A model generated the notes under the pieces. It saw only the letters and a program-made list of their open reading frames with translations. It was not told the origin of the DNA and made no database searches. This document shows positions 1-60,918 of a DNA stretch of 64,000 bases, in pieces. The position numbers and the translations under genes were made by a program. The DNA is from Eledone cirrhosa. Taxonomy: Eukaryota. Where the stretch lies: contig OZ024744.1 in the NCBI GenBank assembly GCA_964016885.1, positions 30,814,001 to 30,878,000 on the forward strand. The letters run 5' to 3'. Every line of letters begins with the position of its first letter. Position 1 is the first letter of the stretch.

Positions 1-156
1 TTTGATACCCAGATTCCTGATGAATTCTAAAGAATGAAACAGTTCTAGTCCTGTAGAATCTCATCTATAGTAACATTTTTGATACCCTGATTCCTGATGA
101 TTTCTAAAGAATGAAACAGTTCTAGTCATCTAAAATCTCATCTATATTAACATTTT

Positions 157-228
157 TTGATACCCAGATTCCTGATGAATTCTAAAGAATGAAACAGTTC
201 AAGTCCTGTAGAATCTCATCTATATTAA
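157..228 (+). ncRNA. Worked example of one satellite hammerhead (fully paired stem II variant); predicted cleavage after A210
   Basis: TTGATA 157-162 pairs with TATTAA 223-228 (one G.U); internal loop CCC/CATCTA; AGATTC 166-171 pairs with GAATCT 211-216; CTGATGA 172-178; ATTC 179-182 pairs with GAAT 187-190; GAAA 191-194; CAG 195-197 pairs with CTG 206-208; TA 209-210. Confidence 0.88.
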
Positions 229-3200
229 CATTTTTGATACCCAGATTCCTGATGATTTCTAAAGAATGAAACAGTTCTAGTCCTGTAGAATCTCATGTTT
301 ATTAACAATTTTTGATACCCAGATTCCTGATGATTTCTAAAGAATGAAACAGTTCTAGTCCTGTAGAATCTCATGTATATTAACAATTTTTGATACCCAG
401 ATTCCTGATGATTTCTAAAGAATGAAACAGTTCTAGTCCTGTAGAATCTCATCTATATTAACATTTTTTGATACCCAGATTCCTGATGAATTCTAAAGAA
501 TGAAACAGTTCTAGTCCTGTAGAATCTCATCTATAGTAACATTTTTGATACCCTGATTCCTGATGATTTCTAAATAATGAAACAGTTCTAGTCATCTAGA
601 ATCTCATCTATATTAACATTTTTTGATACCCAGATTCCTGATGAATTCTAAAGAATGAAACAGTTCAAGTCCTGTAGAATCTCATCTATATTAACATTTT
701 TGATACCCTGATTCCTGACGATTTCTAAATAATGAAACAGTTCTAGTCATCTAGAATCTCATCTATATTAACATTTTTTGATACCCAGATTCCTGATGAA
801 TTCTAAAGAATGAAACAGTTCAAGTCCTGTAGAATCTCATCTATATTAACATTTTTGATACCCAGATTCCTGATGATTTCTAAAGAATGAAACAGTTCTA
901 GTCCTGTAGAATCTCATCTATATTAACAATTTTTGATACCCAGATTCCTGATGATTTCTAAAGAATGAAACAGTTCTAGTCCTGTAGAATCTCATCTATA
1001 TATAAATTTTTTGATACCCAGATTCCTGATAATTTCTAAAGAATGAAACAGTTCTAGTCCTGTAGAATCTCATCTATATTAACATTTTTGATACCCAGAT
1101 TCCTGATGATTTCTAAAGAATGAAACAGTTGTAGTCCTGTAGAATCTCATCTATATTAACATTTTTTGATACCCAGATTTCTGATAATTTCTAAAGAATG
1201 AAACAGATCTAGTCCTGTAGAATCTCATCTATATTAAAAATTTTTGATACCCAGATTCCTGATAATTTGTAGAGAATGAAACAGTTCTAGTCCTGTAGAA
1301 ACTCATCTATATTAAAATTTTTTGATACCCAGATTCCTGATGATTTCTAAAGAATGAAACAGATCTAGTCCTGTAGAATCTCATCTATATTAACATTTTT
1401 TGATACCCAGATTCCTGATGATTTCTAAAGAATGAAACAGTTCTAGTCCTGTAGAATCTCATCTATATTAACATTTTTTGATACCCAGATTCCTGATGAA
1501 TTCTAAAGAATGAAACAGTTCTAGTCCTGTAGAATCTCATCTATAGTAACATTTTTGATACCCTGATTCCTGATGATTTCTAAAGAATGAAACAGTTCTA
1601 GTCATCTAGAATCTCATCTATATTAACATTTTTTGATACCCAGATTCCTGATGAATTCTAAAGAATGAAACAGTTCAAGTCCTGTAGAATCTCATCTATA
1701 TTAACATTTTTGATACCCAGATTCCTGATGATTTCTAAAGAATGAAACAGTTCTAGTCCTGTAGAATCTCATGTATATTAACAATTTTTGATACCCAAAT
1801 TCCTGATGATTTCTAAAGAATGAAACAGTTCTAGTCCTGTAGAATCTCATATACATTAAATTTTTTAGATACCCAGATTCCTGATGATTTCTAAAGAATG
1901 AAACAGTTCTAGTCATCTAGAATCTCATCTATATTAACATTTTTTGATACCCAGATTCCTGATGAATTCTAAAGAATGAAACAGTTCTAGTCCTGTAGAA
2001 TCTCATCTATATTAACATTTTTTGATACCCTGATTCCTGATGAATTCTAAAGAATGAAACAGTTCTAGTCCTGTAGAATCTCATCTATATTAACATTTTT
2101 GATACCCTGATTCCTGATGATTTCTAAATAATGAAACAGTTCTAGTCATCTAGAATCTCATCTATATTAACATTTTTTGATACCCAGATTCCTGATGAAT
2201 TCTAAAGAATGAAACAGTTCAAGTCCTGTAGAATCTCATCTATATTAACATTTTTGATACCCAGATTCCTGATGATTTCTAAAGAATGAAACAGTTCTAG
2301 TCCTGTAGAATCTCATGTATATTAACAATTTTTGATACCCAGATTCCTGATGATTTCTAAAGAATGAAACAGTTCTAGTCCTGTAGAATCTCATCCATAT
2401 TAAAATTTTTTGATACCGAGATTCCTGATAATTTGTAAAGAATGAAACAGTTCTAGTCCTGTAGAATCTCATCTATATTAACATTTTTTCACACCCAGAT
2501 TCCTGATGATTTCTAAAGAATGAAACAGTTCTAGTCCTGTAGAATCTCATCCATATTAAAAATTTTTGATACCCAGATTCCTGATAATTTGTAAAGAATG
2601 AAACAGTTCTAGTCCTGTAGAATCTCATCTATATTAAAAATTCTTGATACCCAGATTCCTGATGATTTCTAAAGAATGAAACAGTTCTAGTCCTGTAGAA
2701 TCTCATCTATATTAACATTTTTTGATAACCAGATTCCTGATGATTTCTAAAGAATGAAACAGTCCTAGTCCTGTAGAATCTCATCTACATTAAATTTTTT
2801 AGATACCCAGATTCCTGATGATTTCTAAAGAATGAAACAGTTCTAGTCCTGTAGAATCTCATCTATATTAACATTTTTTGATACCCAGATTCCTGATGAT
2901 TTCTAAAGAATGAAACAGTTCTAGTCCTTTAGAATCTCATCCATATTAAAATTTGTTGATACCCAGATTCCTGATAATTTGTAAAGAATGAAACAGTTCT
3001 AGTCCTGTAGAATCTCATCTATATTAAAAATTTTTGATACCCAGATTCCTGATGATTTCTAAAGAATGAAACTGTTCTAGTCCTGTAGAATCTCATCTAT
3101 ATTAACATTTTTTGATACACAGATTCCTGATGATTTCTAAAGAATGAAACTGTTCTAGTCCTGTAGAATCTCATCTATATTAACATTTTTTGATACCCAG

Positions 3201-6200
3201 ATTCCTGATGATTTCTAAAGAATGAAACAGTTCTAGTCCTGTAGAATCTCATCTATATTAACATTTTTTGATACCCAGATTCCTGATGAATTCTAAAGAA
3301 TGAAACAGTTCAAGTCCTGTAGAATCTCATCTATATTAACATTTTTGATACACTGATTCCTGATGATTTCTAAATAATGAAACAGTTCTAGTCATCTAGA
3401 ATCTCATCTATATTAACATTTTTTGATACCCAGATTCCTGATGAATTCTAAAGAATGAAACAGTTCAAGTCCTGTAGAATCTCATCTATATTAACATTTT
3501 TGATACCCAGATTCCTGATGATTTCTAAAGAATGAAACAGTTCTAGTCCTGTAGAATCTCATGTATATTAACAATTTTTGATACCCAGATTCCTGATGAT
3601 TTCTAAAGAATGAAACAGTTCTAGTCCTGTAGAATCTCATCTATATATAAATTTTTTGATACCCAGATTCCTGATAATTTCTAAAGAATGAAACAGTTCT
3701 AGTCCTGTAGAATCTCATCTATATTAACATTTTTGATACCCAGATTCCTGATGATTTCTAAAGAATGAAACAGTTGTAGTCCTGTAGAATCTCATCTATA
3801 TTAACATTTTTTGATACCCAGATTTCTGATAATTTCTAAAGAATGAAACAGATCTAGTCCTGTAGAATCTCATCTATATTAAAAATTTTTGATACCCAGA
3901 TTCCTGATAATTTGTAGAGAATGAAACAGTTCTAGTCCTGTAGAAACTCATCTATATTAAAATTTTTTGATACCCAGATTCCTGATGATTTCTAAAGAAT
4001 GAAACAGATCTAGTCCTGTAGAATCTCATCTATATTAAAATTTTTTGATACCCAGATTCCTGATGAATTCTAAAGAATGAAACAGTTCAAGTCCTGTAGA
4101 ATCTCATCTATATTAACATTTTTGATACCCAGATTCTTGATGATTTCTAAAGAATGAAACAGTTCTAGTCCTGTAGAATCTCATGTATATTAACAATTTT
4201 TGATACCCAAATTCCTGATGATTTCTAAAGAATGAAACAGTTCTAGTCCTGTAGAATCTCATATACATTAAATTTTTTTGATACCCAGATTCCTGATGAT
4301 TTCTAAAGAATGAAACAGTTCTAGTCATCTAGAATCTCATCTATATTAACATTTTTTGATACCCAGATTCCTGATGAATTCTAAAGAATGAAACAGTTCT
4401 AGTCCTGTAGTATCTCATCTATATTAACATTTTTTGATACCCCGATTCCTGATGAATTCTAAAGAATGAAACAGTTCTAGTCCTGTAGAATCTCATCTAT
4501 ATTAACATTTTTGATACCCTGATTCCTGATGATTTCTAAATAATGAAACAGTTCTAGTCATCTAGAATCTCATCTATATTAACATTTTTTGATACCCAGA
4601 TTCCTGATGAATTCTAAAGAATGAAACAGTTCAAGTCCTGTAGAATCTCATCTATATTAACATTTTTGATACCCAGATTCCTGATGATTTCTAAAGAATG
4701 AAACAGTTCTAGTCCTGTAGAATCTCATGTATATTAACAATTTTTGATACCCAGATTCCTGATGATTTCTAAAGAATGAAACAGTTCTAGTCCTGTAGAA
4801 TCTCATCTATATATAAATTTTTTGATACCCAGATTCCTGATAATTTCTAAAGAATGAAACAGTTCTAGTCCTGTAGAATCTCATCTATATTAACATTTTT
4901 GATACCCAGATTCCTGATGATTTCTAAAGAATGAAACAGTTGTAGTCCTGTAGAATCTCATCTATATTAACATTTTTTGATACCCAGATTTCTGATAATT
5001 TCTAAAGAATGAAACAGATCTAGTCCTGTAGAATCTCATTTATATTAACATTTTTTGATACCCAGATTCCTGATAATTTGTAATGAATGAAACAGTTCTA
5101 GTCCTGTAGAATCTCATCTATATTAAAATTTTTTGATACCCAGATTCCTGATGATTTCTAAAGAATGAAACAGATCTAGTCCTGTAGAATCTCATCTATA
5201 TTAAAATTTTTTGATACCCAGATTCCTGATGATTTCTAAAGAATGAGACAGTTCTAGTCCTGTAGAATCTCATCTATATTAACATTTTTTGATACCCAGA
5301 TTCCTGATGAATTCTAAAGAATGAAACAGTTCAAGTCCTGTAGAATCTCATCTATATTAACATTTTTGATACCCAGATTCCTGATGATTTCTAAAGAATG
5401 AAACAGTTCTAGTCCTGTAGAATCTCATGTATATTAACAATTTTTGATACCCAGATTCCTGATGATTTCTAAACAATGAAACAGTTCTAGTCCTGTAGAA
5501 TCTCATCTACATTAAATTCTTTAGATACCCAGATTCCTGATGATTTCTAAAGAATGAAACAGTTGTAGTCCTTTAGAATCTCATCCATATTAAAATTTTT
5601 TGATACCCAGATTCCTGATGAATTCTAAAGAATGAAACAGTTCTGGTCCTGTAGAATCTCATCTATATTAACATTTTTGATACCCTGATTCCTGATGATT
5701 TCTAAAGAATGAAACAGTTCTAGTCATCTAGAATCTCATCTATATTAACATTTTTTGATACCCAGATTCCTGATGAATTCTAAAGAATGAAACAGTTCAA
5801 GTCCTGTAGAATCTCATCTATATTAACATTTTTGATACCCAGATTCCTGATGATTTCTAAAGAATGAAACAGTTCTAGTCCTGTAGAATCTCATGTATAT
5901 TAACAATTTTTGATACCCAGATTCCTGATAATTTGTAAAGAATGAAACAGTTCTAGTCCTGTAGAATCTCATCTATATTAACATTTTTTCACACCCAGAT
6001 TCCTGATGATTTCTAAAGAATGAAACAGTTCTAGTCCTGTAGAATCTCATCTATATTAACATTTTTTGATACCCAGATTCCTGATGATTTCTAAAGAATG
6101 AAACAGTTCTAGTCCAGTAGAATCTCATCTATATTAAAATTTTTTGATACCCCGATTCCTGATGATTTCTAAAGAATGAAACAGTTCTAGTCCTGTAGAA

Positions 6201-9200
6201 TCTCATCTATATTAAAATTTTTGGACACCGAGATTCCTGATGATTTCTAAAGAATGAAACAGTTCTAGTCCTGTAGAATCTCATCCATATTAAAAATTTT
6301 TGATACCCAGATTCCTGATAATTTGTAAAGAATGAAACAGTTCTAGTCCTGTAGAATCTCATCTATATTAACATTTTTTGATACCCAGATTCCTGATGGT
6401 TTCTAAAGAATGAAACAGTTCTAGTCCTGTAGAATCTCATCTATATTAACATTTTTTGATACCCAGATTCCTGATGAATTCTAAAGAATGAAAGAGTTCT
6501 AGTCCTGTAGAATCTCATCTATATTAACATTTTTGATACCCAGATTCCTGATGATTTCTAAAGAATGAAACAGTTCTAGTCCTCTAGAATCTCATCTATA
6601 TTAAGATTTTTCGATACCCAGATTCCTGATGAATTCTAAAGAATGAAACAGTTCAAGTCCTGTAGAATCTCATCTATATTAACATTTTTGATACCCAGAT
6701 TCCTGATGATTTCTAAACAATGAAACAGTTATAGTCCTGTAGAATCTCATCTACATTAAATTTTTTAGATACCCAGATTCCTGATGATTTCTAAAGAATG
6801 AAACAGTTCTAGTCCTGTAGAATCTCATCTATATTAACATTTTTTGATACCCAGATTCCTGATGATTTCTAAAGAATGAAACAGTTCTAGTCCTTTAGAA
6901 TCTCATCCATATTAAAATTTGTTGATACCCAGATTTCTGATAATTTCTAAAGAATGAAACAGTTCTAGTCATCTAGAATCTCATCTATGTATAAATTTTT
7001 TGATACCCAGATTCCTGATGGTTTCTAAAGAATGAAACAGTTCTAGTCCTGTAGAATCTCATGTATATTAACAATTTTTGATACCCAGATTCCTGATGAT
7101 TTCTAAAGAATGAAACAGTTCTAGTCCTGTAGAATCTCATCTATATTAACATTTTTTGATACCCAGATTCCTGATGGTTTCTAAAGAATGAAACAGTTCT
7201 AGTCCTGTAGAATCTCATCTATATTAACATTTTTTGATACCCAGATTCCTGATGATTTCTAAAGAATGAAACAGATCTAGTCCTGTAGAATCTCATCTAT
7301 ATTAAAATTTTTTGATACCCAGATTCCTGATGATTTCTAAAGAATGAAACAGTTCTAGTCCTGTAGAATCTCATGTATATTAACAATTTTTGATACCCAG
7401 ATTCCTGATGATTTCTAAAGAATGAAACAGTTCTAGTCCTGTAGAATCTCATCTATATATAAATTTTTTGATACCCAGATTCCTGATAATTTCTAAAGAA
7501 TGAAACAGTTCTAGTCCTGTAGAATCTCATCTATATTAACATTTTTGATACCCAGATTCCTGATGATTTCTAAAGAATGAAACAGTTGTAGTCCTGTAGA
7601 ATCTCATCTATATTAACATTTTTTGATACCCAGATTTCTGATAATTTCTAAAGAATGAAACAGATCTAGTCCTGTAGAATCTCATCTATATTAAAAATTT
7701 TTGATACCCAGATTCCTGATAATTTGTAGAGAATGAAACAGTTCTAGTCCTGTAGAAACTCATCTATATTAAAATTTTTTGATACCCAGATTCCTGATGA
7801 TTTCTAAAGAATGAAACAGATCTAGTCCTGTAGAATCTCATCTATATTAACATTTTTTGATACCCAGATTCCTGATGATTTCTAAAGAATGAAACAGTTC
7901 TAGTCCTGTAGAATCTCATCTATATTAACATTTTTTGATACCCAGATTCCTGATGAATTCTAAAGAATGAAACAGTTCTAGTCCTGTAGAATCTCATCTA
8001 TAGTAACATTTTTGATACCCTGATTCCTGATGATTTCTAAAGAATGAAACAGTTCTAGTCATCTAGAATCTCATCTATATTAACATTTTTTGATACCCAG
8101 ATTCCTGATGAATTCTAAAGAATGAAACAGTTCAAGTCCTGTAGAATCTCATCTATATTAACATTTTTGATACCCAGATTCCTGATGATTTCTAAAGAAT
8201 GAAACAGTTCTAGTCCTGTAGAATCTCATGTATATTAACAATTTTTGATACCCAAATTCCTGATGATTTCTAAAGAATGAAACAGTTCTAGTCCTGTAGA
8301 ATCTCATATACATTAAATTTTTTAGATACCCAGATTCCTGATGATTTCTAAAGAATGAAACAGTTCTAGTCATCTAGAATCTCATCTATATTAACATTTT
8401 TTGATACCCAGATTCCTGATGAATTCTAAAGAATGAAACAGTTCTAGTCCTGTAGAATCTCATCTATATTAACATTTTTTGATACCCTGATTCCTGATGA
8501 ATTCTAAAGAATGAAACAGTTCTAGTCCTGTAGAATCTCATCCATATTAAAATTTTTTGATACCCAGATTCCTGATAATTTGTAAAGAATGAAACAGTTC
8601 TAGTCCTGTAGAATCTCATCTATATTAACATTTTTGATACCCTGATTCCTGATGATTTCTAAATAATGAAACAGTTCTAGTCATCTAGAATCTCATCTAT
8701 ATTAACATTTTTTGATACCCAGATTCCTGATGAATTCTAAAGAATGAAACAGTTCAAGTCCTGTAGAATCTCATCTATATTAACATTTTTGATACCCAGA
8801 TTCCTGATGATTTCTAAAGAATGAAACAGTTCTAGTCCTGTAGAATCTCATCCATATTAAAATTTTTTGATACCCAGATTCCTGATAATTTGTAAAGAAT
8901 GAAACAGTTCTAGTCCTGTAGAATCTCATCTATATTAACATTTTTTCACACCCAGATTCCTGATGATTTCTAAAGAATGAAACAGTTCTAGTCCTGTAGA
9001 ATCTCATCCATATTAAAAATTTTTGATACCCAGATTCCTGATAATTTGTAAAGAATGAAACAGTTCTAGTCCTGTAGAATCTCATCTATATTAAAAATTC
9101 TTGATACCCAGATTCCTGATGATTTCTAAAGAATGAAACAGTTCTAGTCCTGTAGAATCTCATCTATATTAACATTTTTTGATAACCAGATTCCTGATGA

Positions 9201-12200
9201 TTTCTAAAGAATGAAACAGTCCTAGTCCTGTAGAATCTCATCTACATTAAATTTTTTAGATACCCAGATTCCTGATGATTTCTAAAGAATGAAACAGTTC
9301 TAGTCCTGTAGAATCTCATCTATATTAACATTTTTTGATACCCAGATTCCTGATGATTTCTAAAGAATGAAACAGTTCTAGTCCTTTAGAATCTCATCCA
9401 TATTAAAATTTGTTGATACCCAGATTCCTGATAATTTGTAAAGAATGAAACAGTTCTAGTCCTGTAGAATCTCATCTATATTAAAAATTTTTGATACCCA
9501 GATTCCTGATGATTTCTAAAGAATGAAACTGTTCTAGTCCTGTAGAATCTCATCTATATTAACATTTTTTGATACACAGATTCCTGATGATTTCTAAAGA
9601 ATGAAACTGTTCTAGTCCTGTAGAATCTCATCTATATTAACATTTTTTGATACCCAGATTCCTGATGATTTCTAAAGAATGAAACAGTTCTAGTCCTGTA
9701 GAATCTCATCTATATTAACATTTTTTGATACCCAGATTCCTGATGAATTCTAAAGAATGAAACAGTTCTAGTCCTGTAGAATCTCATCTATAGTAACATT
9801 TTTGATACCCTGATTCCTGATGATTTCTAAAGAATGAAACAGTTCTAGTCATCTAGAATCTCATCTATATTAACATTTTTTGATACCCAGATTCCTGATG
9901 AATTCTAAAGAATGAAACAGTTCAAGTCCTGTAGAATCTCATCTATATTAACATTTTTGATACCCAGATTCCTGATGATTTCTAAAGAATGAAACAGTTC
10001 TAGTCCTGTAGAATCTCATGTATATTAACAATTTTTGATACCCAGATTCCTGATGATTTCTAAAGAATGAAACAGTTCTAGTCCTGTAGAATCTCATGTA
10101 TATTAACAATTTTTGATACCCAGATTCCTGATGATTTCTAAAGAATGAAACAGTTCTAGTCCTGTAGAATCTCATCTATATTAAAATTTTTTGATACCCA
10201 GATTCCTGATGAATTCTAAAGAATGAAACAGTTCTAGTCCTGTAGAATCTCATCTATAGTAACATTTTTGATACCCTGATTCCTGATGATTTCTAAAGAA
10301 TGAAACAGTTCTAGTCATCTAGAATCTCATCTATATTAACATTTTTTGATACCCAGATTCCTGATGAATTCTAAAGAATGAAACAGTTCTAGTCCTGTAG
10401 AATCTCATCTATATTAACATTTTTGATACCCTGATTCCTGATGATTTCTAAATAATGAAACAGTTCTAGTCATCTAGAATCTCATCTATATTAACATTTT
10501 TTGATACCCAGATTCCTGATGAATTCTAAAGAATGAAACAGTTCAAGTCCTGTAGAATCTCATCTATATTAACATTTTTGATACACTGATTCCTGATGAT
10601 TTCTAAATAATGAAACAGTTCTAGTCATCTAGAATCTCATCTATATTAACATTTTTTGATACCCAGATTCCTGATGAATTCTAAAGAATGAAACAGTTCA
10701 AGTCCTGTAGAATCTCATCTATATTAACATTTTTGATACCCAGATTCCTGATGATTTCTAAAGAATGAAACAGTTCTAGTCCTGTAGAATCTCATGTATA
10801 TTAACAATTTTTGATACCCAGATTCCTGATGATTTCTAAAGAATGAAACAGTTCTAGTCCTGTAGAATCTCATCTATATATAAATTTTTTGATACCCAGA
10901 TTCCTGATAATTTCTAAAGAATGAAACAGTTCTAGTCCTGTAGAATCTCATCTATATTAACATTTTTGATACCCAGATTCCTGATGATTTCTAAAGAATG
11001 AAACAGTTGTAGTCCTGTAGAATCTCATCTATATTAACATTTTTTGATACCCAGATTTCTGATAATTTCTAAAGAATGAAACAGATCTAGTCCTGTAGAA
11101 TCTCATCTATATTAAAAATTTTTGATACCCAGATTCCTGATAATTTGTAGAGAATGAAACAGTTCTAGTCCTGTAGAAACTCATCTATATTAAAATTTTT
11201 TGATACCCAGATTCCTGATGATTTCTAAAGAATGAAACAGATCTAGTCCTGTAGAATCTCATCTATATTAAAATTTTTTGATACCCAGATTCCTGATGAA
11301 TTCTAAAGAATGAAACAGTTCAAGTCCTGTAGAATCTCATCTATATTAACATTTTTGATACCCAGATTCCTGATGATTTCTAAAAATGAAACAGTTCTAG
11401 TCCTGTAGAATCTCATGTATATTAACAATTTTTGATACCCAAATTCCTGATGATTTCTAAAGAATGAAACAGTTCTAGTCCTGTAGAATCTCATATACAT
11501 TAAATTTTTTTGATACCCAGATTCCTGATGATTTCTAAAGAATGAAACAGTTCTAGTCATCTAGAATCTCATCTATATTAACATTTTTTGATACCCAGAT
11601 TCCTGATGAATTCTAAAGAATGAAACAGTTCTAGTCCTGTAGAATCTCATCTATATTAACATTTTTTGATACCCCGATTCCTGATGAATTCTAAAGAATG
11701 AAACAGTTCTAGTCCTGTAGAATCTCATCTATATTAACATTTTTGATACCCTGATTCCTGATGATTTCTAAATAATGAAACAGTTCTAGTCATCTAGAAT
11801 CTCATCTATATTAACATTTTTTGATACCCAGATTCCTGATGAATTCTAAAGAATGAAACAGTTCAAGTCCTGTAGAATCTCATCTATATTAACATTTTTG
11901 ATACCCAGATTCCTGATGATTTCTAAAGAATGAAACAGTTCTAGTCCTGTAGAATCTCATGTATATTAACAATTTTTGATACCCAGATTCCTGATGATTT
12001 CTAAAGAATGAAACAGTTCTAGTCCTGTAGAATCTCATCTATATATAAATTTTTTGATACCCAGATTCCTGATAATTTCTAAAGAATGAAACAGTTCTAG
12101 TCCTGTAGAATCTCATCTATATTAACATTTTTGATACCCAGATTCCTGATGATTTCTAAAGAATGAAACAGTTGTAGTCCTGTAGAATCTCATCTATATT

Positions 12201-12849
12201 AACATTTTTTGATACCCAGATTTCTGATAATTTCTAAAGAATGAAACAGATCTAGTCCTGTAGAATCTCATTTATATTAACATTTTTTGATACCCAGATT
12301 CCTGATAATTTGTAATGAATGAAACAGTTCTAGTCCTGTAGAATCTCATCTATATTAAAATTTTTTGATAGCCAGATTCCTGATGATTTCTAAAGAATGA
12401 AACAGATCTTGTCCTGTAGAATCTCATCTATATTAAAATTTTTTGATACCCAGATTCCTGATGATTTCTAAAGAATGAGACAGTTCTAGTCCTGTAGAAT
12501 CTCATCTATATTAACATTTTTTGATACCCAGATTCCTGATGAATTCTAAAGAATGAAACAGTTCAAGTCCTGTAGAATCTCATCTATATTAACATTTTTG
12601 ATACCCAGATTCCTGATGATTTCTAAAGAATGAAACAGTTCTAGTCCTGTAGAATCTCATGTATATTAACAATTTTTGATACCCAGATTCCTGATGATTT
12701 CTAAACAATGAAACAGTTCTAGTCCTGTAGAATCTCATCTACATTAAATTCTTTAGATACCCAGATTCCTGATGATTTCTAAAGAATGAAACAGTTGTAG
12801 TCCTTTAGAATCTCATCCATATTAAAATTTTTTGATACCCAGATTCCTG

Positions 12850-15800
12850 ATGATTTCTAAAGAATGAAACTGTTCTAGTCCTGTAAAATCTCATCTATAT
12901 TAACATTTTTTGATACCCAGATTCCTGATGAATTCTAAAGAATGAAACAGTTCTAGTCCTGTAGAATCTCATCTATATTAACATTTTTTGATACCCAGAT
13001 TCCTGATGAATTCTAAAGAATGAAACAGTTCTGGTCCTGTAGAATCTCATCTATATTAACATTTTTGATACCCTGATTCCTGATGATTTCTAAAGAATGA
13101 AACAGTTCTAGTCATCTAGAATCTCATCTATATTAACATTTTTTGATACCCAGATTCCTGATGAATTCTAAAGAATGAAACAGTTCAAGTCCTGTAGAAT
13201 CTCATCTATATTAACATTTTTGATACCCAGATTCCTGATGATTTCTAAAGAATGAAACAGTTCTAGTCCTGTAGAATCTCATGTATATTAACAATTTTTG
13301 ATACCCAGATTCCTGATAATTTGTAAAGAATGAAACAGTTCTAGTCCTGTAGAATCTCATCTATATTAACATTTTTTCACACCCAGATTCCTGATGATTT
13401 CTAAAGAATGAAACAGTTCTAGTCCTGTAGAATCTCATCTATATTAACATTTTTTGATACCCAGATTCCTGATGATTTCTAAAGAATGAAACAGTTCTAG
13501 TCCAGTAGAATCTCATCTATATTAAAATTTTTTGATACCCCGATTCCTGATGATTTCTAAAGAATGAAACAGTTCTAGTCCTGTAGAATCTCATCTATAT
13601 TAAAATTTTTGGACACCGAGATTCCTGATGATTTCTAAAGAATGAAACAGTTCTAGTCCTGTAGAATCTCATCCATATTAAAAATTTTTGATACCCAGAT
13701 TCCTGATAATTTGTAAAGAATGAAACAGTTCTAGTCCTGTAGAATCTCATCTATATTAACATTTTTTGATACCCAGATTCCTGATGGTTTCTAAAGAATG
13801 AAACAGTTCTAGTCCTGTAGAATCTCATCTATATAAACATTTTTTGATACCCAGATTCCTGATTAATTCTAAAGAATGAAAGAGTTCTAGTCCTGTAGAA
13901 TCTCATGTATATTAACATTTTTGATACCCAGATTCCTGATGATTTCTAAAGAATGAAACAGTTCTAGTCCTCTAGAATCTCATCTATATTAAGATTTTTC
14001 GATACCCAGATTCCTGATGAATTCTAAAGAATGATACAGTTCAAGTCCTGTAGAATCTCATCTATATTAACATTTTTGATACCCAGATTCCTGATGATTT
14101 CTAAACAATGAAACAGTTATAGTCCTGTAGAATCTCATCTACATTAAATTTTTTAGATACCCAGATTCCTGATGATTTCTAAAGAATGAAACAGTTCTAG
14201 TCCTGTAGAATCTCATCTATATTAACATTTTTTGATACCCAGATTCCTGATGATTTCTAAAGAATGAAACAGTTCTAGTCCTTTAGAATCTCATCCATAT
14301 TAAAATTTGTTGATACCCAGATTTCTGATAATTTCTAAAGAATGAAACAGTTCTAGTCATCTAGAATCTCATCTATGTATAAATTTTTTGATACCCAGAT
14401 TCCTGATAATTTCTAAAGAATGAAACAGTTCTAGTCCTGTAGAATCTCATCTATATTAACATTTTTTGATACCCAGATTTCTGATAATTTCTAAAGAATG
14501 AAACAGATCTAGTCCTGTAGAATCTCATCTATATTAAAATTTTTAGATACCCAGATTCCTGATAATTTGTAAAGAATGAAACAGTTCTAGTCCTGTAGAA
14601 TCTCATCTATATTAAAATTTTTTGATACCCAGATTCCTGATGATTTCTAAAGAATGAAACAGATCTAGTCCTGTAGAATCTCATCTATATTAAAATTTTT
14701 TGATACCCAGATTCCTGATGATTTCTAAAGAATGAAACAGTTCTAGTCCTGTAGAATCTCATCAATATTTACATTTTTTGATACCCAGATTCCTGATGAT
14801 TTCTAAAGAATGAAACAGTTCTAGTCCTGTAGAATCTCATCTATATTAACATTTTTTGATACCCAGATTCCTGATGAATTCTAAAGAATGAAACAGTTCA
14901 AGTCCTGTAGAATCTCATCTATATTAACATTTTTGATACCCAGATTCCTGATGATTTCTAAAGAATGAAACAGTTCTAGTCCTGTAGAATCTCATGTATA
15001 TTAACAATTTTTGATACCCAGATTCCTGATGATTTCTAAACAATGAAACAGTTCTAGTCCTGTAGAATCTCATCTACATTAAATGTTTTAGATACCCAGA
15101 TTCCTGATGATTTCTAAAGAATGAAACAGTTCTAGTCCTGTAGAATCTCATGTATATTAACATTTTTTGATACCCAGATTCCTGATGATTTCTAAAGAAT
15201 GAAACAGTTGTAGTCCTTTAGAATCTCATCCATATTAAATTTTTTAGATACCCAGATTCCTGATGATTTCTAAAGAATGAAACAGTTCTAGTCCTGTAGA
15301 ATCTCATCTATATTAACATTTTTTGATACCCAGATTCCTGATGATTTCTAAAGAATGAAACAGTTCTAGTCCTCTAGAATCTCATCTATATTAACATTTT
15401 TTGATACCCAGATTCCTGATGATTTCTAAAGAATGAAACAGTTGTAGTCGTTTAGAATCTCATCCATATTCAAAATTTTTGATACCCAGATTCCTGATGA
15501 TTTCTAAAGAATGAAACTGTTCTAGTCCTGTAGAATCTCATCTATATTAACATTTTTTGATACCCAGATTCCTGATGAATTCTAAAGAATGAAACAGTTC
15601 TAGTCCTGTAGAATCTCATCTATATTAACATTTTTTGATACCCAGATTCCTGATGAATTCTAAAGAATGAAACAGTTCTAGTCCTGTAGAATCTCATCTA
15701 TATTAACATTTTTGATACCCTGATTCCTGATGATTTCTAAAGAATGAAACAGTTCTAGTCATCTAGAATCTCATCTATATTAATATTTTTTGATACCCAG

Positions 15801-18800
15801 ATTCCTGATGAATTCTAAAGAATGAAACAGTTCTAGTCCTGTAGAATCTCATCTATATTAACATTTTTTCACACCCAGATTCCTGATGATTTCTAAAGAA
15901 TGAAACAGTTCTAGTCCTGTAGAATCTCATCTATATTAAAATTTTTTGATACCCGGATTCCTGATAATTTGTAAAGAATGAAACAGTACTAGTCGTGTAG
16001 CATCTCATCTATATTAAACATTTTTGATACCCAGATTTCTGATGATTTCTAAAGAATGAAACAGTTCAAGTCCTGTAGAATCTCATCTATATTAACATTT
16101 TTGATACCCAGATTCCTGATGATTTCTAAAGAATGAAACAGTTCTAGTCCTGTAGAATGTCATCTATATTAAAATTTTTTCACACCCAGATTCCTGATGA
16201 TTTCTAAAGAATGAAACAGTTCTAGTCCTGTAGAATCTCATCTATATTAACATTTTTTGATACCCAGATTCCTGATGATTTCTAAAGAATGAATCAGTTC
16301 TAGTCCAGTAGAATCTCATCTATATTAACATTTTTTGATACCCAGATTCCTGATGAATTCTAAAGAATGAAACAGTTCTAGTCCTGTAGAATCTCATCTA
16401 TATTAAAATTTTTGGATACCCAGATTCCTGATGATTTCTAAAGAATGAAACAGTTCTAGTCCTTTAGAATCACATCCATATTAAAATTTTTTGATACCCA
16501 GATTCCTGATGATTTCTAAAGAATGAAACAGTTCTAGTCCTGTAGAATCTCATCAATATTAAAATTTTTTGATACCCCGATTCCTGATGATTTCTAAAGA
16601 ATGAAACAGTTCTAGTCCTGTAGAATCTCATCTATATTAAAATTTTTGGATACCGAGATTCCTGATGATTTCTAAAGAATGAAACAGTTCCAGTCCTGTA
16701 GAATCTCATCCATATTAAAAATTTTTGATACCCAGATTCCTGATGATTTCTAAAGAATGAAACAGTTCTAGTCCTGTAGAATCTCATCTATATTAAAAAT
16801 TCTTGATACCCAGATTCCTGATGATTTCTAAAGAATGAAACAGTTCTAGTCCTGTAGAATCTCATCTATATTAACATTTTTTGATACCCAGATTCCTGAT
16901 GATTTCTAAAGAATGAAACAGTTCTAGTCCTGTAGAATCTCATCTATATTAACATTTTTTGATACCCAGATTCCTGATGGTTTCTAAAGAATCAAACAGT
17001 TCTAGTCCTGTAGAATCTCATCTATATTAACATTTTTTTATAACCAGATTCCTGATGAATTCTAAAGAATGAAACAGTTCTAGTCCTGTAGAATCTCATC
17101 TATATTAACATTTTTGATACCCAGATTCCTGATGATTTCTAAAGAATGAAACAGATCTAGTCCTGTAGAATCTCATGTATATTAACAATTTTTGATACCC
17201 AGATTCCTGATGATTTCTAAACAATGAAACAGTTCTAGTCCTGTAGAATCTCATCTACATTAAATTTTTTAGATACCCAGATTCCTGATGATTTCTAAAG
17301 AATGAAACAGTTCTAGTCCTGTAGAATCTCATCTATATTAACATTTTTTGATACCCAGATTCCTGATGATTTCTAAACAATGAAACAGTTCTAGTCCTGT
17401 AGAATCTCATCTACATTAAATTTTTTAGATACCCAGATTCCTGATGATTTCTAAAGAATGAAACAGTTCTAGTCCTTTAGAATCTCATCCATATTAAAAT
17501 TTGTTGATACCCAGATTCCTGATAATTTGTAAAGAATGAAACAGTTCTAGTCCTGTAGAATCTCATCTATATTAAAATTTTTTGATACCCAGATTCCTGA
17601 TGATTTCTAAAGAGTGAAACTGTTCTAGTCCTGTAGAATCTCATCTATATTAACATTTTTTGATACCCAGATTCCTGATGATTTCTAAAGAATGAAACTG
17701 TTCTAGTCCTGTAAAATCTCATCTATATTAACATTTTTTGATACCCAGATTCCTGATGAATTCTAAAGAATGAAACAGTTCTAGTCCTGTAGAATCTCAT
17801 CTATATTAACATTTTTTGATACCCAGATTCCTGATGAATTCTAAAGAATGAAACAGTTCTGGTCCTGTAGAATCTCATCTATATTAACATTTTTGATACC
17901 CTGATTCCTGATGATTTCTAAAGAATGAAACAGTTCTAGTCATCTAGAATCTCATCTATATTAACATTTTTTGATACCCAGATTCCTGATGAATTCTAAA
18001 GAATGAAACAGTTCAAGTCCTGTAGAATCTCATCTATATTAACATTTTTGATACCCAGATTCCTGATGATTTCTAAAGAATGAAACAGTTCTAGTCCTGT
18101 AGAATCTCATGTATATTAACAATTTTTGATACCCAGATTCCTGATAATTTGTAAAGAATGAAACAGTTCTAGTCCTGTAGAATCTCATCTATATTAACAT
18201 TTTTTCACACCCAGATTCCTGATGATTTCTAAAGAATGAAACAGTTCTAGTCCTGTAGAATCTCATCTATATTAACATTTTTTGATACCCAGATTCCTGA
18301 TGATTTCTAAAGAATGAAACAGTTCTAGTCCAGTAGAATCTCATCTATATTAAAATTTTTTGATACCCCGATTCCTGATGATTTCTAAAGAATGAAACAG
18401 TTCTAGTCCTGTAGAATCTCATCTATATTAAAATTTTTGGACACCGAGATTCCTGATGATTTCTAAAGAATGAAACAGTTCTAGTCCTGTAGAATCTCAT
18501 CCATATTAAAAATTTTTGATACCCAGATTCCTGATAATTTGTAAAGAATGAAACAGTTCTAGTCCTGTAGAATCTCATCTATATTAACATTTTTTGATAC
18601 CCAGATTCCTGATGGTTTCTAAAGAATGAAACAGTTCTAGTCCTGTAGAATCTCATCTATATAAACATTTTTTGATACCCAGATTCCTGATGAATTCTAA
18701 AGAATGAAAGAGTTCTAGTCCTGTAGAATCTCATCTATATTAACATTTTTGATACCCAGATTCCTGATGATTTCTAAAGAATGAAACAGTTCTAGTCCTC

Positions 18801-21800
18801 TAGAATCTCATCTATATTAAGATTTTTCGATACCCAGATTCCTGATGAATTCTAAAGAATGAAACAGTTCAAGTCCTGTAGAATCTCATCTATATTAACA
18901 TTTTTGATACCCAGATTCCTGATGATTTCTAAACAATGAAACAGTTATAGTCCTGTAGAATCTCATCTACATTAAATTTTTTAGATACCCAGATTCCTGA
19001 TGATTTCTAAAGAATGAAACAGTTCTAGTCCTGTAGAATCTCATCTATATTAACATTTTTTGATACCCAGATTCCTGATGATTTCTAAAGAATGAAACAG
19101 TTCTAGTCCTTTAGAATCTCATCCATATTAAAATTTGTTGATACCCAGATTTCTGATAATTTCTAAAGAATGAAACAGTTCTAGTCATCTAGAATCTCAT
19201 CTATGTATAAATTTTTTGATACCCAGATTCCTGATAATTTCTAAAGAATGAAACAGTTCTAGTCCTGTAGAATCTCATCTATATTAACATTTTTTGATAC
19301 CCAGATTTCTGATAATTTCTAAAGAATGAAACAGATCTAGTCCTGTAGAATCTCATCTATATTAAAATTTTTAGATACCCAGATTCCTGATAATTTGTAA
19401 AGAATGAAACAGTTCTAGTCCTGTAGAATCTCATCTATATTAAAATTTTTTGATACCCAGATTCCTGATGATTTCTAAAGAATGAAACAGATCTAGTCCT
19501 GTAGAATCTCATCTATATTAAAATTTTTTGATACCCAGATTCCTGATGATTTCTAAAGAATGAAACAGTTCTAGTCCTGTAGAATCTCATCAATATTTAC
19601 ATTTTTTGATACCCAGATTCCTGATGATTTCTAAAGAATGAAACAGTTCTAGTCCTGTAGAATCTCATCTATATTAACATTTTTTGATACCCAGATTCCT
19701 GATGAATTCTAAAGAATGAAACAGTTCAAGTCCTGTAGAATCTCATCTATATTAACATTTTTGATACCCAGATTCCTGATGATTTCTAAAGAATGAAACA
19801 GTTCTAGTCCTGTAGAATCTCATGTATATTAACAATTTTTGATACCCAGATTCCTGATGATTTCTAAACAATGAAACAGTTCTAGTCCTGTAGAATCTCA
19901 TCTACATTAAATGTTTTAGATACCCAGATTCCTGATGATTTCTAAAGAATGAAACAGTTCTAGTCCTGTAGAATCTCATGTATATTAACATTTTTTGATA
20001 CCCAGATTCCTGATGATTTCTAAAGAATGAAACAGTTGTAGTCCTTTAGAATCTCATCCATATTAAATTTTTTAGATACCCAGATTCCTGATGATTTCTA
20101 AAGAATGAAACAGTTCTAGTCCTGTAGAATCTCATCTATATTAACATTTTTTGATACCCAGATTCCTGATGATTTCTAAAGAATGAAACAGTTCTAGTCC
20201 TCTAGAATCTCATCTATATTAACATTTTTTGATACCCAGATTCCTGATGATTTCTAAAGAATGAAACAGTTGTAGTCCTTTAGAATCTCATCCATATTCA
20301 AAATTTTTGATACCCAGATTCCTGATGATTTCTAAAGAATGAAACTGTTCTAGTCCTGTAGAATCTCATCTATATTAACATTTTTTGATACCCAGATTCC
20401 TGATGAATTCTAAAGAATGAAACAGTTCTAGTCCTGTAGAATCTCATCTATATTAACATTTTTTGATACCCAGATTCCTGATGAATTCTAAAGAATGAAA
20501 CAGTTCTAGTCCTGTAGAATCTCATCTATATTAACATTTTTGATACCCTGATTCCTGATGATTTCTAAAGAATGAAACAGTTCTAGTCATCTAGAATCTC
20601 ATCTATATTAATATTTTTTGATACCCAGATTCCTGATGAATTCTAAAGAATGAAACAGTTCTAGTCCTGTAGAATCTCATCTATATTAACATTTTTTCAC
20701 ACCCAGATTCCTGATGATTTCTAAAGAATGAAACAGTTCTAGTCCTGTAGAATCTCATCTATATTAAAATTTTTTGATACCCGGATTCCTGATAATTTGT
20801 AAAGAATGAAACAGTACTAGTCGTGTAGCATCTCATCTATATTAAACATTTTTGATACCCAGATTTCTGATGATTTCTAAAGAATGAAACAGTTCAAGTC
20901 CTGTAGAATCTCATCTATATTAACATTTTTGATACCCAGATTCCTGATGATTTCTAAAGAATGAAACAGTTCTAGTCCTGTAGAATGTCATCTATATTAA
21001 AATTTTTTCACACCCAGATTCCTGATGATTTCTAAAGAATGAAACAGTTCTAGTCCTGTAGAATCTCATCTATATTAACATTTTTTGATACCCAGATTCC
21101 TGATGATTTCTAAAGAATGAATCAGTTCTAGTCCAGTAGAATCTCATCTATATTAACATTTTTTGATACCCAGATTCCTGATGAATTCTAAAGAATGAAA
21201 CAGTTCTAGTCCTGTAGAATCTCATCTATATTAAAATTTTTGGATACCCAGATTCCTGATGATTTCTAAAGAATGAAACAGTTCTAGTCCTTTAGAATCA
21301 CATCCATATTAAAATTTTTTGATACCCAGATTCCTGATGATTTCTAAAGAATGAAACAGTTCTAGTCCTGTAGAATCTCATCAATATTAAAATTTTTTGA
21401 TATCCCGATTCCTGATGATTTCTAAAGAATGAAACAGTTCTAGTCCTGTAGAATCTCATCTATATTAAAATTTTTGGATACCGAGATTCCTGATGATTTC
21501 TAAAGAATGAAACAGTTCCAGTCCTGTAGAATCTCATCCATATTAAAAATTTTTGATACCCAGATTCCTGATGATTTCTAAAGAATGAAACAGTTCTAGT
21601 CCTGTAGAATCTCATCTATATTAAAAATTCTTGATACCCAGATTCCTGATGATTTCTAAAGAATGAAACAGTTCTAGTCCTGTAGAATCTCATCTATATT
21701 AACATTTTTTGATACCCAGATTCCTGATGATTTCTAAAGAATGAAACAGTTCTAGTCCTGTAGAATCTCATCTATATTAACATTTTTTGATACCCAGATT

Positions 21801-22490
21801 CCTGATGGTTTCTAAAGAATCAAACAGTTCTAGTCCTGTAGAATCTCATCTATATTAACATTTTTTTATAACCAGATTCCTGATGAATTCTAAAGAATGA
21901 AACAGTTCTAGTCCTGTAGAATCTCATCTATATTAACATTTTTGATACCCAGATTCCTGATGATTTCTAAAGAATGAAACAGATCTAGTCCTGTAGAATC
22001 TCATGTATATTAACAATTTTTGATACCCAGATTCCTGATGATTTCTAAACAATGAAACAGTTCTAGTCCTGTAGAATCTCATCTACATTAAATTTTTTAG
22101 ATACCCAGATTCCTGATGATTTCTAAAGAATGAAACAGTTCTAGTCCTGTAGAATCTCATCTATATTAACATTTTTTGATACCCAGATTCCTGATGATTT
22201 CTAAACAATGAAACAGTTCTAGTCCTGTAGAATCTCATCTACATTAAATTTTTTAGATACCCAGATTCCTGATGATTTCTAAAGAATGAAACAGTTCTAG
22301 TCCTTTAGAATCTCATCCATATTAAAATTTGTTGATACCCAGATTCCTGATAATTTGTAAAGAATGAAACAGTTCTAGTCCTGTAGAATCTCATCTATAT
22401 TAAAATTTTTTGATACCCAGATTCCTGATGATTTCTAAAGAGTGAAACTGTTCTAGTCCTGTAGAATCTCATCTATATTAACATTTTTTG
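12850..22490. repeat. Higher-order repeat: two tandem copies of a 4828-bp (about 62-monomer) block
   Basis: Rare variants recur at offset 4828: CTGTAAAATC at 12881 and 17709; CCCGGATTC at 15952 and 20780. Boundaries approximate. Confidence 0.85.
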
Positions 22491-25400
22491 ATACACAGAT
22501 TCCTGATGATTTCTAAAGAATGAAACTGTTCTAGTCCTGTAGAATCTCATCTATATTAACATTTTTTGATACCCAGATTTCTGATGATTTCTAAAGAATG
22601 AAACAGTTCTAGTCCTTTAGAATCTCATCTATATTAACATTTTTTGATACCCAGATTCCTGATGAATTCTAAAGAATGAAACAGTTCTAGTCCTGTAGAA
22701 TCTCATCTATATTAACATTTTTGATACCCTAATTCCTGATGATTTCTAAAGAATGAAACAGTTCTAGTCATCTAGAATCTCATCTATATTAACATTTTTT
22801 GATACCCAGATTCCTGATGAATTCTAAAGAATGAAACAGTTCAAGTCCTGTAGAATCTCATCTATATTAACATTTTTGATACCCAGATTCCTGATGATTT
22901 CTAAAGAATGAAACAGTTCTAGTCCTGTAGAATCTCATGTATATTAACAATTTTTGATACCCAGATTCCTGATGATTTCTAAAGAATGAAACAGTTCTAG
23001 TCCTGTAGAATCTCATATACATTAAATTTTTTAGATAGCCAGATTCCTGATGATTTCTAAAGAATGAAACAGTTCTAGTCCTGTAGAATCTCAACTATAT
23101 TAACATTTTTTGACACCCAGATTCCTGATGATTTCTAAAGAATGAAACAGTTCTATTCCTGTAGAATCTCATCTATATTAAAAAATGTTGATACCCAAAA
23201 TCCTGATGAGTTCTAAAGAATGAAACACCTATAGTCCTGTAGAACCTCATAAATATTAACATTTTTTGATACCCAGATTCCTGATGATTTCTAAAGAATG
23301 AAACAGTTCTAGTCCTGTAGAATCTCATCTATACTAAAATTTTTTGATACCTAGATTCCTGGAGATTTCTAAAGAATGAAACAGTTCTAGTCCTGTAGAA
23401 TCTCATCTATATTAAAAATTTTTGATACCCAGATTCCTGATGATTTCTAAAGAATCAAACAGCTCTAGTGCTGTAGAACCTCATCTATATTAACATTTTT
23501 TGATACCCAGATTCCTGAAGATTTCTAAAGAATGAAACAGTTCTAGTCCTGTAGAATCTCATATATATTAACATTTTTTGACACCCAGATTCCTGATGAT
23601 TTCTAAAGAATGAAACAGTCCTAGTCGTGTAGCATCTCATCTATATTAAACATTTTTGATACCCAGATTTCTGATGATTTCTAAAGAATGAAACAGTTCT
23701 CGTCCTGTAGAATCTCATCTATATTAAAAAATGTTGATACCCAGATTCCTGTTGTTTTCTAAAGAATGAAACAGTTCTAGTCCTGTAGAATATCATCTAT
23801 ATTAAAATTTTTTGATACCCAGATTCCTGATGATTTCTAAAGAATGAAACAGTTGTAGTTCAGTAGAATCTCATCTATATTAAAATTTTTTGACACCCAG
23901 ATTCCTGATGATTTCTAAAGAATGAAACAGATCTAGTCCTGTAGAATCTCATCTATATTAACATTTTTTGATACCCAGATTCCTGATGATTTCTAAAGAA
24001 TGAAACAGTTCTAGTCCTGTAGAATCTCATCTATATTAACATTTTTTGATACCCAGATTCCTGATGATTTCTAAAGAATGAAACAGTTCTAGTCCTCTAG
24101 AATCTCATCTATATTAACATTTTTTGATACCCAGATTCCTGATGATTTCTAAAGAATGAAACAGTTGTAGTCGTTTAGAATCTCATCCATATTCAAAATT
24201 TTTGATACCCAGATTCCTGATGATTTCTAAAGAATGAAACTGTTCTAGTCCTGTAGAATCTCATCTATATTAACATTTTTTGATACCCAGATTCCTGATG
24301 AATTCTAAAGAATGAAACAGTTCTAGTCCTGTAGAATCTCATCTATATTAACATTTTTTGATACCCAGATTCCTGATGAATTCTAAAGAATGAAACAGTT
24401 CTAGTCCTGTAGAATCTCATCTATATTAACATTTTTGATACCCTGATTCCTGATGATTTCTAAAGAATGAAACAGTTCTAGTCATCTAGAATCTCATCTA
24501 TATTAATATTTTTTGATACCCAGATTCCTGATGAATTCTAAAGAATGAAACAGTTCTAGTCCTGTAGAATCTCATCTATATTAACATTTTTTCACACCCA
24601 GATTCCTGATGATTTCTAAAGAATGAAACAGTTCTAGTCCTGTAGAATCTCATCTATATTAAAATTTTTTGATACCCGGATTCCTGATAATTTGTAAAGA
24701 ATGAAACAGTACTAGTCGTGTAGCATCTCATCTATATTAAACATTTTTGATACCCAGATTTCTGATGATTTCTAAAGAATGAAACAGTTCAAGTCCTGTA
24801 GAATCTCATCTATATTAACATTTTTGATACCCAGATTCCTGATGATTTCTAAAGAATGAAACAGTTCTAGTCCTGTAGAATGTCATCTATATTAAAATTT
24901 TTTCACACCCAGATTCCTGATGATTTCTAAAGAATGAAACAGTTCTAGTCCTGTAGAATCTCATCTATATTAACATTTTTTGATACCCAGATTCCTGATG
25001 ATTTCTAAAGAATGAATCAGTTCTAGTCCAGTAGAATCTCATCTATATTAACATTTTTTGATACCCAGATTCCTGATGAATTCTAAAGAATGAAACAGTT
25101 CTAGTCCTGTAGAATCTCATCTATATTAAAATTTTTGGATACCCAGATTCCTGATGATTTCTAAAGAATGAAACAGTTCTAGTCCTTTAGAATCACATCC
25201 ATATTAAAATTTTTTGATACCCAGATTCCTGATGATTTCTAAAGAATGAAACAGTTCTAGTCCTGTAGAATCTCATCAATATTAAAATTTTTTGATACCC
25301 CGATTCCTGATGATTTCTAAAGAATGAAACAGTTCTAGTCCTGTAGAATCTCATCTATATTAAAATTTTTGGATACCGAGATTCCTGATGATTTCTAAAG

Positions 25401-31400: not shown

Positions 31401-32760
31401 GAAACAGTTCTAGTCCTGTAGAATCTCATCTATATTAACATTTTTGATACCCTAATTCCTGATGATTTCTAAAGAATGAAACAGTTCTAGTCATCTAGAA
31501 TCTCATCTATATTAACATTTTTTGATACCCAGATTCCTGATGAATTCTAAAGAATGAAACAGTTCAAGTCCTGTAGAATCTCATCTATATTAACATTTTT
31601 GATACCCAGATTCCTGATGATTTCTAAAGAATGAAACAGTTCTAGTCCTGTAGAATCTCATGTATATTAACAATTTTTGATACCCAGATTCCTGATGATT
31701 TCTAAAGAATGAAACAGTTCTAGTCCTGTAGAATCTCATATACATTAAATTTTTTAGATAGCCAGATTCCTGATGATTTCTAAAGAATGAAACAGTTCTA
31801 GTCCTGTAGAATCTCAACTATATTAACATTTTTTGACACCCAGATTCCTGATGATTTCTAAAGAATGAAACAGTTCTATTCCTGTAGAATCTCATCTATA
31901 TTAAAAAATGTTGATACCCAAAATCCTGATGAGTTCTAAAGAATGAAACACCTATAGTCCTGTAGAACCTCATAAATATTAACATTTTTTGATACCCAGA
32001 TTCCTGATGATTTCTAAAGAATGAAACAGTTCTAGTCCTGTAGAATCTCATCTATACTAAAATTTTTTGATACCTAGATTCCTGGAGATTTCTAAAGAAT
32101 GAAACAGTTCTAGTCCTGTAGAATCTCATCTATATTAAAAATTTTTGATACCCAGATTCCTGATGATTTCTAAAGAATCAAACAGCTCTAGTGCTGTAGA
32201 ACCTCATCTATATTAACATTTTTTGATACCCAGATTCCTGAAGATTTCTAAAGAATGAAACAGTTCTAGTCCTGTAGAATCTCATATATATTAACATTTT
32301 TTGACACCCAGATTCCTGATGATTTCTAAAGAATGAAACAGTCCTAGTCGTGTAGCATCTCATCTATATTAAACATTTTTGATACCCAGATTTCTGATGA
32401 TTTCTAAAGAATGAAACAGTTCTCGTCCTGTAGAATCTCATCTATATTAAAAAATGTTGATACCCAGATTCCTGTTGTTTTCTAAAGAATGAAACAGTTC
32501 TAGTCCTGTAGAATATCATCTATATTAAAATTTTTTGATACCCAGATTCCTGATGATTTCTAAAGAATGAAACAGTTGTAGTTCAGTAGAATCTCATCTA
32601 TATTAAAATTTTTTGACACCCAGATTCCTGATGATTTCTAAAGAATGAAACAGATCTAGTCCTGTAGAATCTCATCTATATTAACATTTTTTGATACCCA
32701 GATTCCTGATGATTTCTAAAGAATGAAACAGTTCTAGTCCTGTAGAATCTCATCTATATT
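15250..32760. repeat. Higher-order tandem duplication of an 8723-bp (about 112-monomer) block
   Basis: Offset 8723 for CCCGGATTC (15952/24675 and 20780/29503), CTGTAAAATC (17709/26432), GTTGTAGTCG (15441/24164) and the identical ORF-track entries at 22867 and 31590. Boundaries approximate. Confidence 0.9.
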
Positions 32761-55111: not shown

Positions 55112-55525
55112 CATCATCATCATCATCATCAACGTTTAACGTCCGTGTTCCACGCTTGCATGGGTTTGGACGGGGGTAGTCCCACTTGAGGCAAGAGTGA
55201 TTGTCTTGCTCGCATAGGACTGTCTGGCAGGTTTTCTACAGTTGGATGCCCTTCCTAACACCAACCACATTTACAGTGTGGGTCTGGGAGGTTTTTACCG
55301 TGTTGCCTACACGGCCACATTACAGCGTGGACTGTGTGTTTTTTTGTCGTGACACCTACACGATCTCATTTGTTTCGGCCTGGATGGCGCGGCACCAACA
55401 TAACTTTACATAGAACGGGGTGGTGTGGATGGGGTGGGGGTGGCGGCGGGAGGGGTGTATTTTGTTAGAGATGCCTACTGGCAAGGCGGGTCTTCTCTGT
55501 TACTGAGTACCGCCAAAGGTCACTC
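55112..55525 (-). mobile_element. 5'-truncated RTE-type non-LTR retroposon (last codons of ORF, 3' UTR, (GAT)n tail) inserted in the satellite, copy 1
   Basis: Minus strand reads SDLWRYSVTEKTRLASRHL*, resembling the C-terminal DxWR region of RTE ORFs, followed by a UTR ending GGACGTTAAACGTT(GAT)n. Flanked by TCTCAT at 55106-55111 and 55526-55531. The empty target GTCTTGTAGAATCTCATATATATT is present elsewhere, e.g. near 56140. Confidence 0.82.

Positions 55526-60887: not shown

Positions 60888-60890
<3 letters not shown>

Positions 60891-60918
<28 letters not shown>

Follow-up and report, generated by a model that had tools for sequence, protein, structure and literature searches.

A satellite array of hammerhead ribozyme units in Eledone cirrhosa that probably grew from the terminal repeat of a Penelope-like element

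The window analysed here (64,000 nucleotides of Eledone cirrhosa, assembly GCA_964016885.1, contig OZ024744.1, positions 30,814,001 to 30,878,000) contains a 78-bp satellite whose unit is a hammerhead motif and nothing else. Our results make it probable that the hammerhead in the pseudo-LTR (pLTR) of a Penelope-like element was duplicated once on C28 and that the copies then grew in place as DNA, drifting without selection on the ribozyme. We therefore regard the array as a ribozyme-only satellite and as a variant of the Penelope-derived hammerhead tandems that is larger than those reported. The stretch of it in the window forms the right-hand end of an array that extends over about 377 kb (C28, 30,496,7xx to 30,873,729), which would hold about 4,800 units if it is continuous; 183 kb of its sequence were read. 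The array starts near C28:30,496,720, and the satellite was present in 13 of 13 sampled stretches upstream of the window. The features of the window are collected in Table 1.

Table 1. Features of the 78-bp satellite, its insertions and the adjoining repeat, in window positions.
Feature	Position	Strand	Remarks
78-bp satellite array	1..59729	+	about 756 copies in the window (three TRF segments)
Cleavage-to-cleavage unit, 77-nt variant	211..287	+	predicted cut after GUA at 287
Stem I, 3' strand, positions 1.1-1.6	211..216	+	6 bp; partner 243-248
Internal loop, distal stem I and terminal loop	217..242	+
Head-to-tail junction (loop I of the earlier note)	229..233	+	highest variability within the unit; missing from the parent element
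Catalytic core CUGAUGA, stem II, GAAA	249..271	+	CUGAUGA 249-255; stem II 256-259/264-267, closing pair U.U at 10.1-11.1, UAAA loop; GAAA 268-271
Stem III with its loop, then GUA triplet	272..287	+	pairs 272-274/283-285; 8-nt loop centred on palindromic CUAG
Exact tandem duplication	15247..32767	+	block of about 8.7-8.8 kb
413-bp insertion with (GAT)n tail	55113..55525	-
Second, identical 413-bp insertion	57247..57659	-	2,134 bp downstream; made by block duplication
422-bp tandem repeat	59730..60893	+	2.8 copies; ends in (TA)n; caps the array; own type I hammerhead, canonical-looking

An earlier note on this DNA had described the unit as a fully closed hammerhead with a structured linker and had proposed it as a 78-nt circular RNA. 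The hammerhead and the linker hairpin are both present in the sequence as that note drew them. When the array in the window was split at the predicted cleavage site, 735 units of 76 to 78 nt with 251 distinct sequences were obtained, and the unit at 211-287 is the commonest exact sequence (28 of the 735). The unit has the conserved positions of the hammerhead core (C3-A9, G12-A14, A15.1-U16.1 and H17) and three helices. The linker pairs as claimed (223-228/234-239), the internal loop follows a 6-bp helix I, which is its canonical position, and the length polymorphism does fall in the terminal loop, with 87 of 92 alignment gaps among the 735 units at unit position 21. A Rfam scan of the window returned no family at the gathering score, the best hammerhead match being HH9 (15.7 bits versus 52); these models are insensitive here, since the canonical-looking motif of the adjoining 422-bp repeat likewise had no hammerhead match in Rfam. 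Many extended hammerheads use a U at position 1.7 for a Hoogsteen contact between loop I and loop II, as described in the available part of PMC11875169. In the satellite unit the last base of loop II is A, but position 1.7 has C in place of U, and the contact is not established from the sequence.

The fully closed hammerhead was not the favoured fold. In circular mode, the minimum free energy (MFE) structure of 211-287 has stem I and the distal hairpin, with stems II and III mispaired. For the four commonest units at 37 C, the three-stem fold is 2.1-3.4 kcal/mol less stable than the circular MFE and has a probability of 4e-4 to 2e-3, and the circular z-scores of +0.05 to +0.66 show that the circle is no more stable than shuffled sequences. 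The linear fold of the unit gave z = +0.84, and over 65 distinct fully intact units the median probability of the hammerhead fold was 1e-3; the folding energies omit Mg2+, tertiary contacts and proteins, and these values therefore indicate an absence of support and not inactivity. A tandem transcript can indeed be drawn in more than one topology, and when a real trimer was folded, type III greatly outweighed both type I and a double hammerhead, all of them being rare.

As judged from sequence, the satellite unit is the predicted type I hammerhead of the terminal repeat of a young Penelope-like element of the Hydra clade. A genome-wide search for the core pattern gave 10,825 exact matches (3,961 on the reverse strand), which are dispersed and often occur as head-to-head pairs; after about 3,000 core matches expected from the array, about 7,900 dispersed parent copies would remain. 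In 20 fetched loci, the hammerhead is flanked by a common element end and not by the satellite junction, and this end stops in (TA)n about 20 nt past the cleavage site in 12 of 29 copies and about 87 nt past it in 14. The element ORF lies directly after the hammerhead motif in L032 and L033. It is a single ORF with a reverse transcriptase (RT) plus GIY-YIG at the C terminus, and its translations in these two loci contain RWR (RWK-like), DKT, CxCX5C, CxxC and CxH motifs, which were matched by eye to the Hydra-clade alignments in the supplement of PMC8557442; RWK, DKT, CxCX5C and CxxC/CxH are given for that clade in section 11 of the paper. Pfam matched only GIY-YIG in this ORF, below the cut-off (E 0.022). 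A protein search returned 684 relatives, nearly all unnamed, and the Atlas look-alikes of the protein score 0.94-0.98 and belong to clusters in which part of the members carry RVT_1 and GIY-YIG; a PDB sequence search with the ORF gave chance matches only.

The parent shares its C-terminal GIY-YIG, DKT, CxCX5C, (TA)n targets and inverted 5'-truncated copies with the Hydra-clade elements described by Craig et al. 2021 (PMC8557442, in the parts available), and it also has a partial tandem pLTR and a hammerhead within it. Several Hydra-clade members listed there likewise have a type I hammerhead, a U.U pair closing stem II and an ACAG/CUGU stem III. By our count, File S2 of that paper shows the U.U pair in 14 of its 26 Hydra-clade rows, and here it is present in 39 of 40 parent copies; damage was considered as its cause and rejected, the pair being ancestral and common in the clade. 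Loop III has 8 nt here, unlike the 1-3 nt of the Hydra-clade hammerheads in the accessible part of PMC8557442, and the hammerhead sequence of the present family was not found in its supplement. Also unlike the case in Hydra-clade elements, the hammerhead alone became a large satellite here. The MFE structure of one parent copy (L040) has the same internal loop and an 8-bp distal stem, and the internal loop and distal stem I are thus inherited from the parent's predicted type I hammerhead; one parent subfamily breaks two distal stem pairs without compensation. Among copies with the ORF start, 1 of 22 begins 2 nt after the predicted cleavage site, a sample too small for a truncation peak. Many dispersed copies are tiny palindromes of two hammerhead-only ends head to head between TA tracts (L036 and L037). 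A third hammerhead family with other stems and the same palindromic minimal stem III was seen in L040 near 2540 and in L104 near 283, and pieces of further ORFs ending in GIY-YIG, like those of other Hydra-type families, were seen in L048 (2907-3617) and L049 (3339-3878).

The array opens within a head-to-head (inverted) Penelope-type insertion in (TA)n, whose right arm is the first unit; this bears out the earlier view that a retroelement route was involved in the origin of the array; an inverted layout of this kind is described for Penelope-like elements in the available text of PMC8557442. The left arm consists of the junction sequence, one hammerhead and a long element tail that ends in (TA)n. 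It differs from the parent consensus at 2 of 108 bases, and 20 dispersed copies differ at 0-4. The left arm is thus about 98% identical to the parent, versus 96% identity of the units to their consensus, a difference that calls for faster mutation within the array or for a later arrival of the inverted pair. The 422-bp repeat now covers the place where the original insertion ended on the right, and that end is lost. The TA tract at the array start looks like a hot spot of nested insertion. Just left of it, an 18-bp minisatellite and a palindromic element of about 400 bp were observed (L051, 4264-5370 and 6150-6545).

The satellite unit begins with the T-tract at the opening of helix I and ends with the A-tract at its close, and both tracts are open ends in the parent. 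Because the parent stem I is open-ended, the terminal loop sits where two copies joined and is the tandem junction. Any duplication of this type will resemble a closed hammerhead, since helix I has its two ends at the boundaries of the unit. The closed hairpin, which had been read as evidence for a circle, is accordingly the head-to-tail joint of two copies. The junction pattern was found 1,449 times in the genome on the forward strand and never on the reverse strand, with 1,494 matches expected from the C28 array alone; a shorter junction pattern gave 1,123 forward matches and 1 reverse match. Apart from one seven-copy offshoot, the junction appears to be confined to the C28 array.

These results bear on the model of the earlier note, in which an early dimer was transcribed, cut twice and ligated into a 78-nt circle, from which the Penelope RT made rolling-circle copies that seeded the array, with DNA mechanisms extending it. 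Circles of 150 to >1000 nt, ligated by RtcB, are established for animal retrozymes (Cervera and de la Pena 2020, PMC7229834) and have been proposed as Penelope RT templates there and in PMC4209133, which in its available part reports Penelope hammerheads of low activity together with a circle hypothesis. The array start has an inverted-plus-tandem layout, as at a 422-bp retrozyme locus, and a ligated circle would be seamless, so that the position of the junction is compatible with a single rolling-circle event after the first duplication. A 78-nt circle could not make that first duplication, because it needs two hammerheads 78 nt apart. Moreover, the genome provides no donor locus with the satellite junction, the single reverse match being consistent with the left arm, and the left arm holds the linear tail of the element, which is impossible in a cleavage circle. 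We consider this model improbable.

The same model predicted short dispersed arrays of the unit. Among the matches listed, which extend as far as C28, the only junction site outside the array is a seven-copy offshoot on C1 (L060, 1369-1958), with five different sequences among its six full units; every difference is an allele seen in the big array, and this mixture speaks against a circle as its source. The exact source block was not found in the array stretches read (best 96.4%). The right flank of the offshoot carries a short duplication, which is suggestive of DNA repair. A junction-independent search for hammerheads 62-92 nt apart gave 2,537 forward and 4 reverse matches, and the matches listed before C28 fall in L060 and five other loci. 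These five are short hammerhead-only tandems with periods of 64, 80, 34-41, 88 and 69-73 nt, in which the copies meet at short matches or TA tracts. One (L133 on C4, 1400-1760), an independent trimer with an 80-nt period, comes from another subfamily; its copies meet at the same T-tract, and it is part of a complex inverted insertion with the tail. Another (L124 on C1, minus strand) is a 64-nt tandem of about four copies in which alternate copies have G12 changed to C, which suggests duplication of a dimer. It has TA on both sides, a point in favour of the circle model, and it could be the product of a rolling circle or of repeated jumps. Since several loci carry tandems with other junctions, the parent element throws off such seeds repeatedly.

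The 422-bp repeat that caps the array served as a comparison control for dispersal of the 78-nt unit. Its hammerhead has U1.7, a U.U pair closing stem II, a palindromic minimal stem III and a long extended helix I, with predicted cuts after 59774, 60196 and 60618. The 422-bp core has 12,756 exact matches in the genome (6,604 forward and 6,152 reverse), with scattered tandems on both strands. Among the first 100 matches listed for each, our count gave 9 tandem loci for the 422-bp element versus 0 for the 78-nt core, which also argues against a mobile 78-nt circle. The hammerhead region of the 422-bp repeat folds at z -3.98, and the probability of stems I and II in a circle is 0.34 for this repeat versus 0.0007 for the 77-mer. 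As a candidate for a true non-LTR retrozyme of high abundance, the 422-bp repeat is a good one. We also considered whether the array and this repeat were inserted together and judged this unlikely, because the 422-bp copies differ at 1 of 422 positions and the array units at about 5.5 of 78. A search of sequencing runs with 59600-59890 listed no RNA run that contains this sequence. Contigs from four sequencing runs were aligned to 59652-59890, where X1 and X6 cover all 30 bins, X5 corresponds to the parent element end with the junction uncovered and X4 to the 422-bp part only; contigs of this kind cannot show ends, strand or absence.

We found that the array bears the marks of growth as DNA. 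There are 14 exact duplicated blocks of at least 600 bp in the window, and neighbouring units are identical in 8 of 734 cases. The largest duplication in Table 1 is either very recent or an assembly artefact. That the length of the array is largely such an artefact of a shorter repeat is very improbable: the exact duplication of about 8.8 kb would favour it, but the 735 units comprise 251 distinct sequences, allele frequencies shift along the array, and independent insertions are present. No simple higher-order period was found up to 40 units. The 413-bp insertion is presumably the 3' end of an RTE-type LINE. Fragments with (GAT)n tails were seen in the array at two independent sites in opposite orientations, one being the duplicated pair in Table 1 and the other L057 near 9130-9390.

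Selection on the ribozyme is not visible. The units are 96% identical to the consensus (about 4% divergence). Across 2,292 units, the 11 core positions diverge by 0.025 versus 0.028 in base-matched sets (permutation p 0.31, 0.36 on a log scale). For 20 drawn pairs in the same units there were 2,547 pair-breaking, 415 one-sided and 15 compensatory cells, where cells count copies that are not independent, and not events, and power is low at 4% divergence. Mean divergence is 0.18 at the terminal loop and junction versus 0.025-0.036 for the core, stems and loops I and III. The change U10.1A, which restores a Watson-Crick pair, is present in 136 of the 2,292 units, mostly in one region. The core is intact in 1,751 of the 2,292 units (76%) and in 566 of 735 units in the window, where 275 of 735 units have the core and all three stems intact.

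An array co-opted as an RNA device, which would cut plus-strand read-through at intervals of a few units or yield small RNAs that silence the approximately 7,900 parent copies, would fit the retention of the core in 76% of units, the near-identity of the units to the parent element end, and the palindromic loop III, which permits a double hammerhead between neighbours (-18.8 kcal/mol as drawn). We regard it as quite improbable: the core and stems lack excess conservation, and the ensemble weight of the double hammerhead is negligible in the real trimer. Adjacent pairs in which both units are fully intact, which the circle model could draw on, number 105 of 725, versus 101 expected, and intact neighbours are thus at the chance level.

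Taken together, these results favour duplication of the element's terminal hammerhead and growth in place as DNA. One insertion into (TA)n on C28 would have laid down the hammerhead end head-to-tail, most likely, we infer, by a template jump or slippage of the RT at a short match of two T-tracts, one at the beginning of the ribozyme and one immediately behind the ribozyme. The dimer would then have multiplied at the site through unequal exchange and block duplication of DNA until about 4,800 copies were reached, with the copies drifting and the ribozyme unselected. The closed stem I hairpin would be a geometric by-product of the duplication. Should the plus strand be transcribed, cleavage may persist in some units, but the array would not depend on it.

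The satellite resembles non-LTR retrozymes (PMC7229834; Li et al.), as far as the available parts of these sources describe them, in its head-to-tail tandem, its type I hammerhead in each of consecutive units (the definition of Li et al. with its MFE filter being left aside), its low GC content and its origin from a Penelope pLTR. Li et al. (bioRxiv 10.64898/2026.07.22.740005) proposed local tandem amplification from the pLTR and, in the portion available, report retrozyme consensus sequences of 51-972 bp, a maximum of 300 units and cleavage of 1 of 9 tested dimers. In contrast to the retrozymes so described, the unit here is the ribozyme only, about 4,800 units far exceed the reported maximum, and they lie at one locus and are not dispersed. 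The 422-bp control has the mobility of a retrozyme and the 78-nt unit does not; retrozyme circles are shown in these sources only at 150 nt or more, and the satellite, known here from DNA alone, is not filed as a retrozyme. The satellites of newt, schistosome and cave cricket, as cited in PMC7229834, also carry a hammerhead in each unit, but according to that text their units are longer, dispersed and shown to be transcribed, whereas here the autonomous parent element and sibling seeds are present in the same genome. A literature search at the level of listings found no ribozyme-only array of such size, and the 51-bp families in the bioRxiv supplement may include a similar case. New here are the ribozyme-only unit, the size of the array and the visible series of seeds.

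It is conceivable, if unlikely, that read-through transcripts release ribozyme-only monomers of 77-78 nt that a host ligase closes into circles, with the poor folding of the monomer and the palindromic loop III letting tandem precursors cut while circles persist. If this were true, the smallest retrozyme circles reported so far would be about twice as large as these, and one active Penelope element would have given rise to a natural series of newly born minimal retrozymes, namely the 64-, 78- and 80-nt tandems. The adjacent 422-bp retrozyme candidate offers a built-in comparison for how small a retrozyme circle can be. The results also carry a warning: such a duplication automatically yields a "fully closed" hammerhead unit, and a unit of this form is therefore no evidence of an RNA circle. 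One genome thus displays the proposed path from the terminal hammerhead of a Penelope-like element to a tandem: the parent, newborn dimers to tetramers with different junctions, and a runaway of about 377 kb.
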